A stretch of DNA of 64,000 nucleotides from an uncultured Candidatus Saccharibacteria bacterium (GTDB lineage: Bacteria; Patescibacteriota; Minisyncoccia; 2-02-FULL-40-12; GWA2-44-9), in contig CAYZRE010000002.1 in the NCBI GenBank assembly GCA_964479835.1, forward strand, positions 24,987-88,986. The letters run 5' to 3'. Shown here piece by piece: positions 41,911-54,259 of this stretch. How positions within the stretch are numbered: position 1 is the first letter of the stretch; each line of letters begins with the position of its first letter. The notes under the pieces were generated by a model. It searched no databases. It saw only the letters and a list, made by a program, of their open reading frames with translations, and was not told where the DNA came from. A program made the translations under genes and the position numbers.

Positions 41911-42008
41911 ACCCCAATGTTACTCTCCCACCTTCCTCCCCGCAAACGGCTTCCGCAAAAGAAAAACCGGCAGGCGGAGGCGCCTGCCGGTCCAAACGTT
42001 GCGAAATT

Positions 42009-42326
42009 CTACTTCTGCTTGTCGATGGTCCAGATGTAGCCGGCGGATGTCAGGTCGATGACCTTCCGGGCGCGCGACCGACCGTCGTCGTACTCGGCGA
42101 AGAGCGAGTGCTCTCCCACCTCGTATCTGACGTTGCACTCGCGTTGCGGGGTGGCACGGCAGGTCTCCTCGTCGCCGTCCACCGAGAACACGAGCGGGTC
42201 GGCCGTGTTGTTGATGAACCTGATCAGCCCCGTGCTCTGGGCCTGCACCGGCGGCGGCTGTACCGCGAACCCCGCCATCAGCGCCAGCAGACCAATCGAC
42301 AACACCATCAAGACTGCCTTTCTCAT
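42009..42326 (-). CDS. small secreted hypothetical protein
   Basis: signal peptide MRKAVLMVLSIGLLALMAGFAVQPPPVQA; RBS AAAGGAGG. Confidence 0.5.
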   Translation of the reverse strand: MRKAVLMVLSIGLLALMAGFAVQPPPVQAQSTGLIRFINNTADPLVFSVDGDEETCRATPQRECNVRYEVGEHSLFAEYDDGRSRARKVIDLTSAGYIWTIDKQK

Positions 42327-42409
42327 ACGACCTCCTTTGTTACTGCGAGTTCACACTATAACACACTAATTCCCTCCCCGCAAACCGACCATTTTCCAAA
42401 AAGCAGCGG

Positions 42410-42961
42410 CTATTTCTGATTGATAGCTAGAATTTCGTTAACGCGCTTGAGAACTAGATCGCCATCTAACATCTCGCGTCCTTTAATGCGAAGTAATGGA
42501 AGGTTAGCCGACTCAAGAATACGCTGAACCTCAATATCGCGTTGGATTCTATCTGGCCGCTCATGTGAAGGGTCATCTAGCTCAATCGCTAGTACCGTGT
42601 GGAGACTATTTTTCTCACACAATACGTAATCAACTGACTTTTCGTCGATATGCCGAAACGCACCAAACCAGCTCTGGCCCTTAATCTTGTGCTCAACAAT
42701 CGATGGCAAGTGGATTTGCGGGAATACCAAAAAACGGTCGCCGATTATCCGCGTAAGAAGGCGAAAGAACTCCTGCTCTGTATGCGTCATAACAGAAGCT
42801 TTTCTCCCGTAGAGATATTTATACGGCTGTGCCTTTTGTGTCTTTCTACGAAATAGGCCTACCAGCACCACGAGCACGATAAGGCCAAGAATAATCGGCC
42901 AAAACGGCTTCACGAACGTGAAGAACGCATTCACTATTTGCCAAAAATCGAGATTGATCAT
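42410..42961 (-). CDS. DUF2726-like (NERD / PD-(D/E)XK-related) membrane-anchored protein
   Basis: N-terminal TM, then YVLCEKNSLHTVLAIELDDPSH core typical of DUF2726; start overlaps the RM gene stop (ATGA); AT-rich codon usage. Confidence 0.55.
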   Translation of the reverse strand: MINLDFWQIVNAFFTFVKPFWPIILGLIVLVVLVGLFRRKTQKAQPYKYLYGRKASVMTHTEQEFFRLLTRIIGDRFLVFPQIHLPSIVEHKIKGQSWFGAFRHIDEKSVDYVLCEKNSLHTVLAIELDDPSHERPDRIQRDIEVQRILESANLPLLRIKGREMLDGDLVLKRVNEILAINQK

Positions 42962-45900
42962 TTTATTTTGTCGATTTCTTCCATGATACGGTCGGTTTCG
43001 GTGAGCGCAACAATAATTTTTTGATAATGTGAGATATCATCAAATGACAATTTCATACCACGTCGATCTTTCAACCACTTCTGAGCTGGCAAGTAGCTAC
43101 CCATAACATACCCAAACGCTTCTTCGGATATATTTTGAAAACTTTGCGTTTCATTAATAAATACTTCACCCTTCCTGAATATAGGGAACTTCGGACCAAC
43201 GATGTTACTGCCGAGTGCTGGAAACTTGGATGTGTAGTTACCGATCTCGGGATGTTCTAGTAGATGATAGAGGCGCAGGTCTCTGCCTTTTTGGACGAGC
43301 TTCAGAAATGTCTCCTTATTTGACGGGTACGGAATACGCGGGAAGTCCGTCTTCAGGAATTCTTGGTATTTTTTTCGATAATTTAGTGAGTATAGCGTCG
43401 CATAGATGTAGTCAAGGATATCTTCTGACGATATGGCACCGACAACATTTTCTATTTTGCTCACTATTTCTTTCCTTAGATTAGAGGTTCGTGTATTATC
43501 GTCAGAGTAAAGATATAGCGGGAAGACGTAGCCAGCCTCCTTAGTTCGATTCGTTAGGAGGCACATGTCAATTAGACCCCTTCCAATGAAGGCGTGGTTA
43601 AATTCATTGACTGCCAGCTGGCGAGGAACGAGAAGTGCGATGTTGTCTCGTTCGAGAAGATGCTTCATAATCGCATACCGGGGACGAGCAATGAAACCCT
43701 TATTTTCGTGGGTATAGTATATCCATCTAACATCGAATGGACGGTAAGATATTTGCCTCAAATGAGATTCGGAGAAATTTCTTTCTACATCGTTCTTTGC
43801 GTTCGGCAGCTGCCAGCTACTAGTATCTTTCGGAATGCCGTACTTCTGGCGCAATGCGACAACATCCAAACTCTTAAAATCTAGAACACGCTGTTGGAGC
43901 ATTTCTTTTCTTTGATCGATGGCCAACTCATCCCTGAACGTTGCAATTCCAACACTGGACTCTAAGAATAATTCATCGAGACTGAATCCTCGTCTGTATT
44001 CTTCTCTGCCCTCCATGTTCTTATCCACAAAGAAATACATCTGGTCATCGAGTGACACCTCTTGCCAGTTTGGTTTATAAGAATCTAGGGCAGTAAATTT
44101 CGAACGACGAGAGCCGAATAAGTCGTCATGATATACTCTGGCCGGTTGATTGGCCTTCTTGTCTCCTGTTTTCACGGCAATCAAGATTGCTACTCCCTGT
44201 TGAATATCAAAGACGTTTTCATCTTTGTTGCCATCGGGAGAAAGTTCCTCCTTTTTTAGATTGCCATGGAGATCGAGTACATAGATTGAATCGAAAGTTT
44301 TTGTCAGATGCCATCGCATACCACGAAACGTTGGGTTATCAATGTAGCCGTGAGCTGTGATCATGGCTACGATGCCCGTACCAGTTTTCTCAATAAAACT
44401 CTCTGCTAAACGGATAAACTTAACATAATCATCGTTCAGCCATTTTGAATTCCGCTCTTGTAGCTTCATTCTCCCGCCAGGCTCTACTTTATACACATCA
44501 TGCCCCGTATACTGCTTATTTTGAGACTCACCTTTATATGGCGGATTGCCAATAACGACCATAACCGGCAACTCTTCTTTTACTCGTGAAGCACCAATAG
44601 ACTCTTCGGTAAGCGAACGCATCAGTCCGAATTCAAGCTGTGGTTGCACGGCGCCCGCGGGTTCCAAAGAATTTGTAAGATACACACCGATTCTGTCGTT
44701 TGGTTCGGCACCTGTTTCAGTCAGAACCATGGATAACTTGAGGTGTGCGACAATATAACTTGCGACGAGAAGCTCGAATCCGTGCATTCGTGGAAGTAAG
44801 TGTTCATTTACATAACTTGGCCATTGACCTTTTTGACTCTCAAATGACTCGTATATCTTGTGGATAGTCTCATTCAAGAATGTTCCGGTACCAACAGCGG
44901 GGTCCAAAATCTGGACACGGTGAATCTGTTCCTTAACTTTTTTAAACTGGCCTGTTTTATTAGTCTCCTGAATAGAAATCTCATGCTCAACCTTAGAAGT
45001 GTCTGCCAGTCCTTTTGAGAGACCAAAATCGCGACGAAGAATCTCGTCCACCGATCGAACGATGAAACGTACAATAGGCGGGCGAGTATAAAATACGCCA
45101 CGATCTAACTTCTGCCCTTTATCGTATTCTCCCAAAAAGTCTTCATAGAAATGAACAACGGGATCAAGTGCTTCGGGGTCCTTACCCCACAAACCTACTT
45201 GCCTGAAGCGATCCTCCATAATTCCCTTGACATCAGCTGCGGTAAATATTAAAGATAAATCGGAAACGATATAATCAAGTCTTGAGTCAAACTCTGGGCC
45301 AGAAATATGATTAAAGAACTGCCTTAAAAAGGGGTTAGAGCGTGGCACAAGGCCTTGTGCTTCCTGTCTTGAAAAATTCCCTGGCGTTTTATCGTAGAAG
45401 CGAGCTACAAATAGGCCATATACTAATGTTTGGGCATACATATCCGCAAATTGCTCGATCGTTAGGTCGTGTATAAGAAGACGCTTAAAAACGTCGAATT
45501 GTTCAAGAAGCGATCGACTTTTCTCTCCACCTTCTTTGCTATAGATGACAATATTTTCTCGAAGACGACGCCCTCGACCACCCATGATTCGAGACAATTT
45601 TTCTGCAGAGGTTATCGTTTGAGCTCCGAGTTCAAGAAACGCTGAAAGTTCGCGGACTAGTAACTCATATGCCTCCGCGTGAAATACCAATCCCTCTCCA
45701 TGACGAGATGCGATAATGATTTTTTCTCCATAGGGTTCGCCGTCTCGGAAAAATCGAAATTCAATGTAGTTCGTCAATATAAGCTTCGGATATCCTAGAT
45801 ACCTCTCGAGTTGTTCCGATGTCTGGACTTTATCCAAGTTTACAGCGAGGTCCTTCGTTTCAATGTAGGCAAGAGGAACTGCCCCTTTTTTAACAATAAA

Positions 45901-46071
45901 GTCGGGCGCTCCAAACTGAGAACGCTTTGGCTCATTAATTATCTGGCAGTTCTCGCATGTAGTCCCCAGAAACTCTTCAAAGGGTGCGCGATAAGAATGC
46001 TCACCAGCCTCGCCAGTTGCAAACTTGCCGCCGATTTTTCCGAGATACTCCGCGACTTTATGTGCAGTCAC
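42958..46071 (-). CDS. Type IIG restriction-modification enzyme (fused PD-ExK endonuclease, gamma-class N6-adenine MTase and TRD; MmeI-like)
   Basis: 1037 aa; N-terminal PD-(D/E)XK (GAPDFIV...AYIETKDL), MTase motif I ILDPAVGTGTFL and motif IV VIGNPPYKG in gamma order, long C-terminal TRD; apparent GTG start; AT-rich. Confidence 0.75.
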   Translation of the reverse strand: MTAHKVAEYLGKIGGKFATGEAGEHSYRAPFEEFLGTTCENCQIINEPKRSQFGAPDFIVKKGAVPLAYIETKDLAVNLDKVQTSEQLERYLGYPKLILTNYIEFRFFRDGEPYGEKIIIASRHGEGLVFHAEAYELLVRELSAFLELGAQTITSAEKLSRIMGGRGRRLRENIVIYSKEGGEKSRSLLEQFDVFKRLLIHDLTIEQFADMYAQTLVYGLFVARFYDKTPGNFSRQEAQGLVPRSNPFLRQFFNHISGPEFDSRLDYIVSDLSLIFTAADVKGIMEDRFRQVGLWGKDPEALDPVVHFYEDFLGEYDKGQKLDRGVFYTRPPIVRFIVRSVDEILRRDFGLSKGLADTSKVEHEISIQETNKTGQFKKVKEQIHRVQILDPAVGTGTFLNETIHKIYESFESQKGQWPSYVNEHLLPRMHGFELLVASYIVAHLKLSMVLTETGAEPNDRIGVYLTNSLEPAGAVQPQLEFGLMRSLTEESIGASRVKEELPVMVVIGNPPYKGESQNKQYTGHDVYKVEPGGRMKLQERNSKWLNDDYVKFIRLAESFIEKTGTGIVAMITAHGYIDNPTFRGMRWHLTKTFDSIYVLDLHGNLKKEELSPDGNKDENVFDIQQGVAILIAVKTGDKKANQPARVYHDDLFGSRRSKFTALDSYKPNWQEVSLDDQMYFFVDKNMEGREEYRRGFSLDELFLESSVGIATFRDELAIDQRKEMLQQRVLDFKSLDVVALRQKYGIPKDTSSWQLPNAKNDVERNFSESHLRQISYRPFDVRWIYYTHENKGFIARPRYAIMKHLLERDNIALLVPRQLAVNEFNHAFIGRGLIDMCLLTNRTKEAGYVFPLYLYSDDNTRTSNLRKEIVSKIENVVGAISSEDILDYIYATLYSLNYRKKYQEFLKTDFPRIPYPSNKETFLKLVQKGRDLRLYHLLEHPEIGNYTSKFPALGSNIVGPKFPIFRKGEVFINETQSFQNISEEAFGYVMGSYLPAQKWLKDRRGMKLSFDDISHYQKIIVALTETDRIMEEIDKIK

Positions 46072-46076
46072 AATTC

Positions 46077-46110
46077 TTCAAATCTACCAAAAAACCGGCC
46101 TTGTGGCCAG
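46077..46110. repeat. ~34-nt repeated upstream element, copy 1 (minus-strand reading CTGGCCACAAGGCCGGTTTTTTGGTAGATTTGAA)
   Basis: near-identical to copy 2 at 46601-46632; lies immediately 5' of the RM start codon. Confidence 0.5.
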
Positions 46111-46119
46111 TTCTCGGTG

Positions 46120-46143
46120 AACGGCTCACCGAATGAGCCGTTT
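46120..46143. repeat. REP-like palindrome copy 5 (AACGGCTCA-ccgaa-TGAGCCGTT)
   Basis: same family as the other copies, between the RM gene start and the upstream gene's stop. Confidence 0.55.
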
Positions 46144-46156
46144 GATCCCGTGGTAT

Positions 46157-46591
46157 TCAGACGAGTTGCGGAATTTTCAGTAGCTTGCGTATCTCATTGA
46201 GGTCATCATCATTTCTAAGGGCATTATTGCCCGGACCTAGGCCGTTCGAGAGTCTGATGAGCCGCCGCGCAGCGTCCGCAACATTTCTGTCGTCGTTCTT
46301 TGTACGAAAAACCAGTTGTTTTCTCGATGCTTCTAAATCGCATGAATTTCTACGAAGATCGTCCGAGCATTTTTGATAGCGCTCCGGCCAAAAAGAATTT
46401 TCACTAGGCGGAATAGGGTTTGTTATTACATTCGCGTAATATTTCAATTCGTTATCGATTTTCCCAATCACTCCCTTATATTCTTGCAGGGGCACTAGAA
46501 CGAACCTTTGGATTGTTTCGCCTATCAGAAAAATAACCACGCCAGATATGACGGTCTGAAAAACTGTACTTCCGAGAAGGGTCGCGATCAT
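46157..46591 (-). CDS. hypothetical protein with N-terminal TM helix
   Basis: The ORF track starts at TTG 46612 inside the repeated element; the ATG at 46591 (MIATLLGS...) is preferred; no family recognised. Confidence 0.4.
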   Translation of the reverse strand: MIATLLGSTVFQTVISGVVIFLIGETIQRFVLVPLQEYKGVIGKIDNELKYYANVITNPIPPSENSFWPERYQKCSDDLRRNSCDLEASRKQLVFRTKNDDRNVADAARRLIRLSNGLGPGNNALRNDDDLNEIRKLLKIPQLV

Positions 46592-46600
46592 GTCAGGCGA

Positions 46601-46632
46601 CAAATCTAACAAAAAACCGGCCCCGTGGCCAG
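46601..46632. repeat. ~34-nt repeated upstream element, copy 2
   Basis: minus-strand reading CTGGCCACGGGGCCGGTTTTTTGTTAGATTTG, about 5 mismatches to copy 1. Confidence 0.5.
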
Positions 46633-46670
46633 TCGTGGAGTAGGGTCGGTAATGTAGTAGGGCAGCTCGT

Positions 46671-47327
46671 TTAAACTAGCGTTGCCTGGGAACCACCCAA
46701 TAGGACTTGATTAATGAGATCGTGATACAGCCTACTAGCTAGTGTAGTATTGAAGTCGGGATCATTGGAGGCTGTTAGCAATAGCAGTTTTTCTCTATAT
46801 AGGCCCTGTGACTTTAAAAAGGCGATTTCCGCAGAGTCTCCTAAAATCATTGATTCTATAACTTTGAAGGCAGGGTCCAGAAAAAACTCGGCCACTTTAT
46901 CCTCCAGCTGTTCTTGCTTAGTTTGCTTATTGAGATGGACGAATTGAAAATTCTTTTTGTATCCGATAAAACATTTCCCACCAAGATTGATAATTTCGGG
47001 GCCAAGCTTTTCGCCAGCATCACAGGCAAGAGCGTGAACAAATTTCCCCTGCATTATTTTGGCATTTTCTCCAACCCGAATCAGTATTTCTCTGTTATAT
47101 CCACACAGATGATCTGGGCCCCCGTGTCCGTTAAAAAAAACAATCTGGGGATCATTCTCTGATATAGCGGTCTCAATATTTACTCGAGTGACCGAAGGGC
47201 CCGATAATTCTATAACTACTGTCTCGGGCTGTTTTTTAGCCAGCTCAACCACTCGGTCACACCAGGCACCTATATACTCAGTGGGCCGATCGTGAGCCGG
47301 GTTTGTAAAAACCAGTATGCGGCTCAC
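46671..47327 (-). CDS. caspase-like (C14-type His/Cys dyad) fold protein, candidate peptidase
   Basis: 218 aa; hydrophobic first strand RILVFTNP, then FFNGHGG (metacaspase YSGHG-like) and HALACDAGEK (D-x-C-x-x-G-like Cys motif) in the order expected for a caspase/metacaspase dyad; GTG start. Confidence 0.45.
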   Translation of the reverse strand: MSRILVFTNPAHDRPTEYIGAWCDRVVELAKKQPETVVIELSGPSVTRVNIETAISENDPQIVFFNGHGGPDHLCGYNREILIRVGENAKIMQGKFVHALACDAGEKLGPEIINLGGKCFIGYKKNFQFVHLNKQTKQEQLEDKVAEFFLDPAFKVIESMILGDSAEIAFLKSQGLYREKLLLLTASNDPDFNTTLASRLYHDLINQVLLGGSQATLV

Positions 47328-47581
47328 TGGGTGACAAGATTAGGGTTAGCAATCTTAGCAACAATGCCAGTTCTTAGGGCGCGTAGAAATTCCATTTCTG
47401 TCTCGATATAGTCCAAGCCAATAGTAGACTCATTGGTAACATGTTGAATCATCTCATCTCGAGAGATATTGGCCGCCTGGTCTCCGCTGGAAAAGTGAAG
47501 ATTTCGAGACAAAATTTCTAGTCGAGCTAAGATTGTTTCTTTTACTACCGGATCGGCTGATTTTTGCACAACTTTTTTCAT
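47324..47581 (-). CDS. hypothetical small protein
   Basis: 85 aa, start overlaps upstream stop, stop overlaps downstream start (operon coupling). Confidence 0.4.
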   Translation of the reverse strand: MKKVVQKSADPVVKETILARLEILSRNLHFSSGDQAANISRDEMIQHVTNESTIGLDYIETEMEFLRALRTGIVAKIANPNLVTQ

Positions 47582-47584
47582 ATT

Positions 47585-47782
47585 CTAGATTAGCTGTAAG
47601 CGCTCAAGCTCGCTAAGGATTTTTTCAGAAAGTTCTGTTTTTGCCTTCACTTCAATAAATGCAACATCCCAAGTAATGGGTTTTTGTATTCCGTCTAACT
47701 CAATCACCAAAATAATCTCATTTCGGAGACTTAATGGAATGTTGGAGTAAACTCTTAGAAACCGTTCCCTGAGATCATCCAT
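47585..47782 (-). CDS. hypothetical small protein (first gene of island operon)
   Basis: 65 aa; sits 26 nt downstream of a perfect promoter. Confidence 0.4.
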   Translation of the reverse strand: MDDLRERFLRVYSNIPLSLRNEIILVIELDGIQKPITWDVAFIEVKAKTELSEKILSELERLQLI

Positions 47783-47808
47783 AAATAGTACTTTGTAATT
47801 GGGGAAGG

Positions 47809-47837
47809 ATTATACGCTATTTACTAGGGGGAATCAA
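47809..47837 (-). promoter_or_regulatory. sigma70-type promoter TTGATT-N17-TATAAT driving the island operon
   Basis: read on the minus strand; -10 TATAAT about 27 nt upstream of the ATG at 47782. Confidence 0.5.
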
Positions 47838-48068
47838 GATGGGATGAGCCTCTATATACTAAAATTTACCATTTTTGTGCCAGCAGGGACAAGGGGACAA
47901 CTAAGATGCGCGTGGCCATTTGCGAGCGCACCACCCGGGCCCTGGCATGCTCGCTTGCTGTACCAAAGCCGAGCGAACAGCGATGGCGACGTTACGCACC
48001 GGGAGCGGACAGGGCTTGGGTGGTAAGCGAGAACAGAAACCCCGCCGATTGGCGGGGTTTCTTCTGCG

Positions 48069-48611
48069 TTACCGTTTCGCCCATCTTGGACCCTTCCTCG
48101 CTTTTTTGAGACCGGGTTTCTTTCTTTCGACTTTTCTCGGATCGCGGGTGAGGAAACCTGCCTTCTTCAATTTCTTACGGAAATTCGCATCGAACAGCTC
48201 GAGACAGCGCGAGATGCCGTGGCGAACAGCGTCGGCCTGACCCGAGATACCGCCTCCGTTAACATGCGCGGTGACCTTGAAGCGCTGAAGCGATTTCAGG
48301 CGGCGGAGCGGTTGCTCGACGCGCAGAATGAGGTTCTTATCCAAAAAGTATGCGGCATAGTCCTTATCGTTGACGGTCATGAGCGCGGCATCCTCGGTGA
48401 GCTTGTCGCCCGACTTGCGGGTCATCAGGCGCACGCGCGCAACGGCTGTTTTGCGGCGGCCGACCGCTTCGAAATACTTCTCCTTGGCTCCCTCGGGAAG
48501 TTCTTCCAGTGTCATCGGGCCCAGCTCAATGTCATCATCGTCGCGAACAGTGTCCACGAAGGTGGGAGTGGCGGGCTTTACGGTGATTTCTTCGGGTTGG
48601 GTGGTTGCCAT
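48069..48611 (-). CDS. rpsI: 30S ribosomal protein S9 with N-terminal extension
   Basis: C-terminal GLKKARKGPRWAKR and RRKTAVARVRL core; about 45-aa acidic N-terminal extension. Confidence 0.85.
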   Translation of the reverse strand: MATTQPEEITVKPATPTFVDTVRDDDDIELGPMTLEELPEGAKEKYFEAVGRRKTAVARVRLMTRKSGDKLTEDAALMTVNDKDYAAYFLDKNLILRVEQPLRRLKSLQRFKVTAHVNGGGISGQADAVRHGISRCLELFDANFRKKLKKAGFLTRDPRKVERKKPGLKKARKGPRWAKR

Positions 48612-52207: not shown

Positions 52208-54157
52208 CTATTGGCCGCCCTCGTCGTACACGAGTTCTATCTCGATTTTGGCCGGGTTTGAGGGCACGGAACGGACCCAGAATGGCGACAGGGTGACGGT
52301 GGCCGACCGGATACCCTCTTTATCCTTGAAGTAGCTCTGGATATTTGCGGTATTCTTGCCGCCGATATCCTGCTTGATGGCGTCGGTATCCACCGGCGCA
52401 TACCCCATGCCCTTCACGGTGACGGTAAAGGTCAGGGTTCCCGAGTCAGCCTTGAACGAGATATCCGAGTACGAAAGCTCTAGCTTGTCGGGCATCACCA
52501 TGAGGCGCTCCCGCTTGAGGAAACTCTTTCGGATAAGCTCCCGAAGATCGGTACTTCGGAACGCGACCGTGGCGAGTGTCCCTGTGGCGGTTGCGGTGAC
52601 CGAGTCGGCGGCGTCATCAACCCGGGCCGAGCTTTGCGCATCCTTCATGACGGGCTTGTCGCCATCAAGCACCATGAGTTCGTCGCCCTGTGCCTCGAGC
52701 GCTTGTTTGATTTCTTCTTTGACTGCCGCACTGGCTGCTGCCGTTGCGTTTTCGAGGTCAACCGCCGTGACGACGGATGAAGGTCCGCTGACACCTCCGG
52801 TCATCGGCTGATCGGAGCGACCATAGAATTGCTTTACCTTATCCGTCTCGCCCTTTTCGACAAAGGCCATGATGGTAAAATTTCCGGCGGGTACATTGTA
52901 GGTCGGTCCGGGTTTGTCGGCGATGACATCCACGGTTGTGGTTCCTGCGACGGTCTTACCCGCGTTCACCGTACTGCCCGGCACCGTGACATTCTGCAGA
53001 GTCCGGAAGACTAACCCGTTTGATGATTGAAATCGTGTCGTCACGACCAGCGTCTGGGGCGAGGAAGAATATTCATTGACGACCGTCAGTTTGCCGCGCG
53101 CCTTGGATGCCACCTCGCGGTTGCCGGTTGCGGGGACCGTATTGGATGCGGTCTTGCTGACCTCCAACAGCTGTCCCGGGATTTTATAAAATGCATCGTC
53201 CACACTCGTGAATGCATCGGACGCCTGTACCGTGATTTGAGTATCCAGTGTTTTTCCGGTGGGAGCCAGCGCAACACGCGCCGAACCGGTTGTGGCGTAC
53301 ACGACCGAACCCAGGACGAGAAATGCGGCCAGCAGGATGCCGGCGATAACTTTCTTGGGAACAGATGCATCTCCGGCACTGCGCGCGGTCAGTGAGAATG
53401 AGCCGGCGAGCATATGGAAGAAACGGGTCATCAGTGACGGTCTGCTGGGAGTGACATTGAGTGTCGTTCTCCGGCCGTACCCGACTTTGTCGCGCCAAAC
53501 CGTATCTATGTAGTCCAGCTCCCGTGCGGTTTGCACGGGGATAGGGGCCGCTTTCTCGACACGCGATGACGGAGAGAGTGTTCTCTGCGGTACCCCGCCC
53601 CGTATGCCGTCTACCACAGACGCGAGCATCGCGGTGGATACATCTTCAGCATCAGGCTCATCGGCTTTGCCGTCTTTATTGTCATCAACCGGATTGCCCT
53701 CTTCATCCAGGACATGCATGTTGCGAAGCGGGTCGCCGTCGATTGCGTCGGAATCAATACTGTCGTTGCCCATCGTCGCGTCCGAAGTCATCGGAACTTC
53801 GCTGAATGCATCGTCTTGCTCGTCGCGGATTTCGGGGTCGGCCGGTGGCGGAGAGCTTGCCAGAACAGCGGGCTGACGGGCCGGAGCCACAGAGGCCGGC
53901 CTGTTTGGTTTCTGTGATGCGATAACGGTAAAGCCGAACTTCTTTGCTAAAACAGCTGTATCGGGATTTGGGGTAAGAACGGAGACGGTCTTTTTACCCT
54001 GACTCGCTTCGCTGGCAAATGCGGCGAAATGGTCTTCATGACGGAAGAGTCTGCCGTTGCGTGGCAAGACCAGAAATACTTCTCCCTCAGGCGCCTTTCG
54101 GAACAGCTCCAGAATCTCGTCGAAGGAGTCGTCCTTGAGAACATTGATAATCTTCAC
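52208..54157 (-). CDS. large hypothetical membrane protein (cytoplasmic N-domain, acidic linker, TM, Thr/Val-rich extracytoplasmic domain)
   Basis: The ORF track starts at an in-frame TTG (54241); an in-frame GTG at 54157 (VKIINVL...) is given as a conservative start. A GAGGTG-tccac-ATG just upstream is out of frame. Confidence 0.5.
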   Translation of the reverse strand: MKIINVLKDDSFDEILELFRKAPEGEVFLVLPRNGRLFRHEDHFAAFASEASQGKKTVSVLTPNPDTAVLAKKFGFTVIASQKPNRPASVAPARQPAVLASSPPPADPEIRDEQDDAFSEVPMTSDATMGNDSIDSDAIDGDPLRNMHVLDEEGNPVDDNKDGKADEPDAEDVSTAMLASVVDGIRGGVPQRTLSPSSRVEKAAPIPVQTARELDYIDTVWRDKVGYGRRTTLNVTPSRPSLMTRFFHMLAGSFSLTARSAGDASVPKKVIAGILLAAFLVLGSVVYATTGSARVALAPTGKTLDTQITVQASDAFTSVDDAFYKIPGQLLEVSKTASNTVPATGNREVASKARGKLTVVNEYSSSPQTLVVTTRFQSSNGLVFRTLQNVTVPGSTVNAGKTVAGTTTVDVIADKPGPTYNVPAGNFTIMAFVEKGETDKVKQFYGRSDQPMTGGVSGPSSVVTAVDLENATAAASAAVKEEIKQALEAQGDELMVLDGDKPVMKDAQSSARVDDAADSVTATATGTLATVAFRSTDLRELIRKSFLKRERLMVMPDKLELSYSDISFKADSGTLTFTVTVKGMGYAPVDTDAIKQDIGGKNTANIQSYFKDKEGIRSATVTLSPFWVRSVPSNPAKIEIELVYDEGGQ

Positions 54158-54259
54158 GGGGTAATAAGTATGATAAAGGTTGTAGTTCAGTATACCCTGT
54201 TCTCCTGCGAACTCAAACCCCCTGCCATGTGGACACCTCAAACCCAGCTACACCACATA

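Follow-up and report, generated by a model that had tools for sequence, protein, structure and literature searches.

Introduction

Cysteine peptidases of clan CD carry out cell death in eukaryotes and have recently been found in the role of executioner in several bacterial immune pathways too, among them Craspase, SAVED-CHAT and gasdermin activation. They often have a single dedicated substrate that is encoded nearby, as is the case with Csx30 for Craspase. According to reports, known defence systems are very scarce in bacteria of the candidate phyla radiation (CPR). Functional metagenomics has recovered defence genes restricted to Patescibacteria, ldgA and ddgA/Dallas (Cell Host Microbe 2025, PMC12366544). 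The present study concerns three consecutive genes, g1, g2 and g3, on the minus strand of a 64,000-nucleotide (nt) stretch from an uncultured Candidatus Saccharibacteria bacterium (contig CAYZRE010000002.1), the whole of which is referred to here as the window. A first-pass annotation, made from the sequence alone, had described a four-gene module around a caspase-like protein and proposed an undescribed defence or abortive-infection system. Its structural model makes the g3 product a member of a previously unclassified family of cysteine peptidase homologues in clan CD, and the module has three genes, not four.

g3 as a predicted clan-CD peptidase

The AlphaFold2 model of g3, built on a 76-sequence alignment, is of high confidence (predicted local distance difference test, pLDDT, 96.1; predicted template modelling score, pTM, 0.92). 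It is an alpha/beta/alpha sandwich with a central six-stranded sheet, and its top structural similarity is to the clan-CD fold. The best structural matches are clan-CD peptidases throughout, as listed here with the score of each:

Gingipain RgpB, 17.6
Gingipain Kgp, 17.1
SAVED-CHAT, 16.6
Separase, 14.1
Metacaspase-9, 13.6
Legumain, about 13
Caspases, about 11

With Foldseek, SAVED-CHAT ranks first (E 4e-6). The motifs FFNGHGG and LACDAG, from which a His/Cys dyad had been proposed, can be read directly on the minus strand. His68 (codon 47126-47124) follows strand 62-66 (beta3; IVFFN-G-H68-G) and Cys102 (codon 47024-47022) follows strand 96-100 (beta4; FVHAL-A-C102), reproducing the clan-CD order His-Gly ... 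Ala/Ser-Cys, with each element placed directly after a hydrophobic beta-strand. Among 149 representatives with no more than 50% identity to each other, His68, Gly69 and Cys102 are invariant (149/149), G67 is nearly so, and Asp143 is present in 146. The caspase-like reading of the 218-residue protein was therefore upheld by the confident model, by its clan-CD matches and by the invariant dyad, and the predicted fold is of the caspase alpha/beta type rather than an unrelated one.

The conservation of the dyad, of G67 and of D143 fits selection on catalysis, and g3 is predicted to be catalytically active. A second acidic position, 13, is also conserved (Asp in the window, Asp or Glu in all ungapped sequences of the same set), and D13 and D143 might be the S1 determinants for a basic P1 residue.

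At the level of primary sequence the relationship is faint. Nothing in Pfam, NCBIfam, PHROGs or PADLOC matches g3 above threshold, no Pfam clan-CD family does so in any of 76 family members, and a profile search of PDB sequences returned no clan-CD chain. The Pfam families CHAT, C14, C13 and C11 gave no match on g3, nor are they in the list of the 25 families that the 76 relatives match most often (E <= 1). Peptidase_C25 (PF01364) matches residues 44-105 of g3 with 10.7 bits (E 0.3), below its 23-bit gathering threshold, and is the commonest sub-threshold Pfam match among the relatives (6 of 76, best E 0.0066). In a profile comparison with human caspase-3 (hhalign), the best local match places His68 on the catalytic His121 and has the HG..G hairpin motif in common, with a P value (0.088) that is not significant alone. 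Judged by its model, g3 thus represents a new sequence family of clan-CD (caspase/gingipain/CHAT-fold) cysteine peptidase homologues.

Size and distribution of the g3 family

A single-sequence search with g3 against 5.8 billion proteins returned two relatives only; a profile of g3 and these two gave 81 matches, and when 1.84 billion representatives were searched exhaustively with a profile, 1,991 clusters (50% identity) were obtained at E <= 1e-3, with 245 at E <= 1e-30. The best 150 relatives are almost all stand-alone proteins of about 205-220 residues. All named records are labelled ‘hypothetical protein’ and come from Candidatus Saccharibacteria, the Patescibacteria group or an unclassified ‘bacterium’. 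There was no tblastn match in INPHARED phages or PLSDB plasmids and no locus in IMG/VR, and no description of the family was found in the literature. The g1-g2-g3 set has so far been seen only in the ultra-small Patescibacteria (CPR), where the g3 family, with its roughly 2,000 clusters, is patchy and not universal.

Gene structure and transcription signals

The features of the locus are as follows (window coordinates):

47837-47809, minus strand, putative sigma-70-like promoter TTGATT-N17-TATAAT, 5' of g1 (10/12 match)
47585-47782, minus strand, g1, open reading frame of 65 amino acids
47324-47581, minus strand, g2, open reading frame of 85 amino acids
46671-47327, minus strand, g3, open reading frame of 218 amino acids
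46605-46634, minus strand, intrinsic terminator closing g1-g2-g3 (hairpin 46634-46615 plus T-run; stem of 8 base pairs, 5 of them GC)
46157-46612, minus strand, g4, 151 amino acids from a TTG start or 145 from the ATG at 46594

All four open reading frames had been placed correctly in the first-pass annotation. The genes of the trio can be taken as real, since clusters homologous to g3 number about 2,000 and it is regularly preceded by g1 and g2. The overlapping stops and starts that had been reported for all three genes occur only between g2 and g3, which share GTGA; g1 ends in TAG, after which come AAT and, without a change of frame, the start codon ATG of g2. In both the window (47582-47587) and its closest relative, locus L001 (1608-1613), g1 and g2 are in frame with a stop codon between them, the window having one extra codon. 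Readthrough from g1 into g2 is not a conserved feature, because most other loci have an out-of-frame ATGA overlap at this point.

The promoter had been called perfect. The sequence TTGATT-N17-TATAAT is indeed present and is the sole 10/12 match, and the best, in a 6.6-kilobase scan (42000-48600), but its -35 hexamer agrees with TTGACA at only four of six positions. Promoter-like sites in the same region are not in excess over shuffled sequence (7 found, 9.3 expected), and no operator-like inverted repeat of note is present at the g1 promoter. The terminator lies 3' of g3 and ahead of g4, and is the first copy (D1) of a 33-nt repeat that is described below. That g1-g2-g3 form a self-contained, mobile operon is firmly supported; it has a putative promoter and a terminator of its own.

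Conservation of the trio

In the neighbourhoods inspected first, those of g3 relatives with 24-61% identity, two small genes were always found upstream of g3. A degenerate DNA pattern based on the motifs NGHG...C...IGY...F then recovered 120 metagenomic loci, all of which encode a member of the g3 family, and a locus search with a narrow g3 alignment (A4) gave one genome locus. The comparison set comprises 135 trio loci, the window and 134 others. Of the 114 loci that have room for it, 110 carry a homologue of g2 immediately before g3; in the other four, g2 is split in one, g3 is split in another, the two genes are fused in a third and the distance filter missed g2 in the last. Upstream sequence is long enough for g1 in 100 loci, and 97 of these have a g1 homologue there, on the strand of g3. 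Most commonly g1 and g2 overlap by 4 nt, while g2/g3 junctions are mostly 4- or 8-nt overlaps or gaps of 0-3 nt.

A few loci depart from this arrangement. In L116 (649-1467, plus strand) a single open reading frame of 272 amino acids joins g2 to g3 (...LRAFKKGIF-CVLFSRPKHDD...), which is either a natural fusion, hinting at contact between the two proteins, or the artefact of an indel at the usual 4-8-nt overlap. One gene is split into two open reading frames in L014 (441-667, g2) and in L076 (583-1238, g3); pseudogenised copies and assembly frameshifts are both possible.

The proposed four-gene module does not recur: a homologue of g4 stands beside none of the 134 other loci, and it is only the trio g1-g2-g3 that is conserved. 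The module therefore consists of three genes.

The small partner proteins

Both small proteins have family consensus sequences, that of g1 being ..KFLKvYAnLPlxLRxeIvaVIDxxPisWnaAyiEIxnxTklGkkILkkLkeLgII, with invariant residues F8, W38 and E44 (alignment A6), and that of g2 ..LViARLexmPpNvkiSiGseGeFtkdELIehVekeDeiGkkIiemqLeFLRaLkkG, with invariant R20, G33 and G55. A profile-profile comparison (hhalign) aligns them over 49 co-linear columns (P = 6.8e-4), and they share an apparent layout of helix, short beta segment, helix, Gly-containing turn and helix. On this basis g1 and g2 are probably distant paralogues. With median isoelectric points of 6.4 for g1 and 6.1 for g2, the partners are near-neutral to acidic, whereas g3, at 8.9, is basic.

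Neither protein matches any family in Pfam, NCBIfam, PHROG or PADLOC, including any antitoxin or regulator family; the g1 profile has no sequence match in the PDB, and a single-sequence homologue search with g2 returned only g2 itself. The statement of the first-pass annotation that the proteins belong to no recognised family is thus correct for g1, g2 and g3; g4, by contrast, has a weak match (see below). Two candidate relationships were set aside. A match of g2 to the designed double-psi barrel 7dww (E 9e-5), suggestive of a cradle-loop or AbrB-like element, was judged unproven because its score is made up by a 21-residue motif that occurs twice, at ~12-13 bits per copy. Similarity of g1 to DUF7713 is sub-threshold in 5 of 37 members (best E 0.012) and uninformative. 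A single-sequence AlphaFold2 model of g2 is helical and of low confidence (pLDDT 56), too poor for a fold search.

Genomic context of the trio

The guanine-plus-cytosine (GC) content of the window trio is 0.42, and that of the surrounding island (42958-47900) is 0.435, against 0.546 for the remainder of the window. As had been noted, the trio is adjacent here to a Type IIG restriction-modification (RM) enzyme, which matches PADLOC REase_MTase_IIG (4e-279) and Pfam Type_ISP_C (6e-76), and to a DUF2726 protein (3e-27). A search of the island with PADLOC-DB v2.0.0 (E <= 1) detected this RM enzyme and gave no match for any of g1 to g4. The defence-island setting is not a general trait of the system. 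No homologue of the RM enzyme or of the DUF2726 protein occurs in the 134 other trio loci, and neighbours are mixed, with none recurrent: the largest cluster of neighbouring genes is found at 7 of 135 loci, and nothing beyond the trio itself is conserved.

The 150 non-redundant immediate neighbours that were sampled matched 135 different Pfam families. They include housekeeping proteins (FtsH, a tRNA synthetase, Lgt, PGI) as well as mobile or defence-related ones (two integrases, two transposases, type I RM, ResIII, NYN, MNT, RhuM and a DNA methylase); PemK also occurs next to trio loci. The gene downstream of the trio shares its orientation in 53 loci and has the opposite one in 39, and transmembrane (TM) segments are not enriched in downstream genes (34% vs 28% background). 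In L001, which at 61% identity is the closest relative, the downstream gene is unrelated and on the opposite strand. Insertion sites range from a position between FtsH/PP2C and RecG (L006) to one beside a ribosomal-protein cluster (the window).

The GC content of the trio departs by more than 3 points from its flanks in 26 of 43 long loci, lying below the flanks in high-GC hosts and above them in low-GC hosts, a pattern that fits repeated horizontal acquisition. Because nothing else is conserved and GC departs from the flanks in many hosts, the trio behaves as a mobile cassette. No convincing att-like flanking repeats or tRNA were found at the borders of the island in the window.

The fourth gene, g4, has a hydrophobic segment at its N-terminus. 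Its product matches the phage family phrog_7512 (function unassigned) weakly, at E 8e-6, over almost its full length; it has no tblastn match in INPHARED phages. A 33-nt direct repeat (46079-46111 and 46601-46633; 30/33 identical, 522 nt apart) brackets g4 exactly, each copy consisting of a terminator hairpin, a T-run and G(T/G)TAGATTTG. It looks as if g4 is a cassette that came to lie between the trio and the RM gene by insertion, either into a duplicated terminator or along with it. As a separate insertion it falls outside the module, which leaves three genes. Like the RM enzyme and the DUF2726 protein, g4 is a neighbour in the same acquired island and not a component of the system.

Some other features of the island and its surroundings were recorded. 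At 42410-46071 (minus strand) the Type IIG RM gene (1037 amino acids; Type_ISP_C, MmeI/Eco57I-type methylase) has a 4-nt overlap with the downstream DUF2726 gene, whose product of 183 amino acids is hydrophobic near its N-terminus and matches REase_MTES_1575 weakly; the two genes may form a restriction unit. The island was inserted directly 3' of the rplM-rpsI pair and of the terminator that follows this pair, and ribosomal protein S9 (48069-48611, minus strand; 180 amino acids) carries an acidic-rich N-terminal extension of ~50 residues. Further away, an open reading frame of 677 amino acids (52208-54241, minus strand) just upstream of infA is of no obvious family, no search having been made with it. 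In bacterial ribosomal-protein clusters this position is usually occupied by secY-adk-map.

Possible function

The cassette-like mobility of the trio and its combination of a protease with small partners make a role in defence or abortive infection plausible. As in type II and tripartite toxin-antitoxin systems, small partners and a larger effector are joined in a compact operon that behaves as an autonomous cassette. The leading reading, a tentative one with rather less than an even chance, is that the trio resembles in its action a tripartite toxin-antitoxin or abortive-infection module, with g1 and g2 either restraining the protease or being the first proteins that it cleaves. In the mechanism that we infer, g3 would be a minimal cytoplasmic clan-CD cysteine endopeptidase with the caspase-hemoglobinase fold, and g1 and g2, whose genes are translationally coupled to g3, would form a stoichiometric complex with this basic protease. 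They would hold it inactive as inhibitor or pseudosubstrate, in the manner of securin with separase or of a prodomain with gingipain; alternatively, they might be its dedicated first substrates. A trigger, either phage infection or the loss of labile partners, would then free g3 to proteolyse cellular targets, giving the module its presumed role in defence or addiction. A more specific version is doubtful: here the trio would be an undescribed, Patescibacteria-wide family of protease-based toxin-antitoxin or abortive-infection modules, with the effector gated by a paralogous mini-protein heterodimer of new fold.

Several observations weigh against a role in conflict. PADLOC-DB contains no model that matches g1, g2 or g3; many loci lie among housekeeping genes (FtsH, RecG, AIRS, FKBP, tRNA synthetase); g1 and g2 come close to g3 in their degree of conservation, an uncommon trait in antitoxins, which evolve fast; and g3 lacks a sensor domain.

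A dedicated maturation system with a physiological role, unconnected with conflict, is an unlikely but serious alternative. In such a system g3 would process g1 and g2, as two substrates or as substrate and chaperone, a single time into an active heterodimer of small proteins that serves the physiology of CPR bacteria, with regulation and the epibiotic lifestyle as examples. The strictly kept order and tight coupling of the genes, the even conservation of all three proteins, the many housekeeping neighbourhoods and the precedent of single dedicated substrates in clan CD all favour it. Against it, a leader/core or tail architecture is not apparent in g1 and g2, the anomalous GC and the variety of insertion sites indicate an accessory element that is often transferred, and the family is patchy across CPR.

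Very unlikely is a transpeptidase or ligase activity (as in GPI8, legumain-type ligases or PorU), by which g3 would attach g1, g2 or a fragment of them to a target protein: the closest structural matches (gingipains, CHAT, separase) are hydrolases, there is no signal of a ubiquitin-like fold and no Gly-Gly or Asn/Asp ligation motif, and the context suggests no target. It is more improbable still that g3 is an inert caspase-fold scaffold, or pseudo-protease, in a small regulatory complex, given that His68, Gly69 and Cys102 are without exception in 149 representatives and G67 and D143 nearly so. Hardly credible, finally, is a four-gene defence system in which the trio and a TM-anchored g4 are functionally tied to the Type IIG RM enzyme and DUF2726; the shared strand and low-GC island of the window speak for it, but it is opposed by the terminator between g3 and g4, the duplicated repeat around g4, the absence of all three extra genes from the other loci, the unrelated, oppositely oriented gene in L001 and the lack of enrichment of downstream TM genes.

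Should the trio prove to be a conflict module, it would be a protease-based addition to the sparse immune repertoire of CPR and a three-protein model for the restraint of a caspase-fold enzyme. If the more specific version were true, g3 would be among the smallest stand-alone caspase-fold proteases, and the trio a minimal ‘prokaryotic caspase plus inhibitor’ death switch. If it is not defensive, it would still represent a CPR-specific proteolytic pathway and two new families of small proteins.

Comparison with known systems

The gingipains RgpB and Kgp (MEROPS C25, clan CD), which head the list of structural matches, are found in Bacteroidota, whereas g3 occurs in Patescibacteria, and sequence identity between them is 10-15%. 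In gingipains the catalytic and Ig-like domains together exceed 400 residues, compared with 218 residues for the whole of g3, which is cytoplasmic and lacks the signal peptide, prodomain, Ig-like domain and type IX secretion system (T9SS) C-terminal domain. The CHAT immune proteases (SAVED-CHAT, 8tl0; the TPR-CHAT/Csx29 of Craspase; DdvA) differ from g3 in their SAVED, TPR or transmembrane sensor domains. In contrast to these systems, the trio operon contains no CRISPR or cyclic-oligonucleotide genes, and g3 is a stand-alone minimal domain accompanied by two small partners. Separase is eukaryotic, exceeds 1,000 residues and has helical domains, unlike g3, while its inhibitor securin is an intrinsically disordered protein with no sequence relationship to g1 or g2.

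As for the Patescibacteria-restricted ldgA and ddgA, g3 is probably not one of them, since their proteins are reported to have no structural homology to known proteins (PMC12366544). No existing family or PADLOC model covers g1, g2 or g3, in agreement with the original view that this is not a known annotated system.

The gene architecture, on the other hand, is that of tripartite toxin-antitoxin systems such as omega-epsilon-zeta and PaaR-PaaA-ParE, in which two small genes precede a larger effector gene and all are tightly coupled; these, too, are self-contained cassettes whose insertion sites vary and whose GC content is anomalous. A difference is that neither small protein of the trio is matched by any family of antitoxins or regulators. 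To our knowledge, no toxin of a described toxin-antitoxin system is a clan-CD protease. The trio can also be likened to operons of bacterial gasdermins and caspase-like proteases, conflict systems in which a caspase-fold protease is encoded beside its target protein, but at 65 and 85 residues g1 and g2 are far too small for gasdermins and have no gasdermin match, and no pore-forming component was identified. The g3 family cuts the clan-CD fold down to ~215 residues and is always paired with two dedicated mini-proteins. Its sequence family and the architecture of its operon are new; the fold and the mechanistic class to which it belongs are known.

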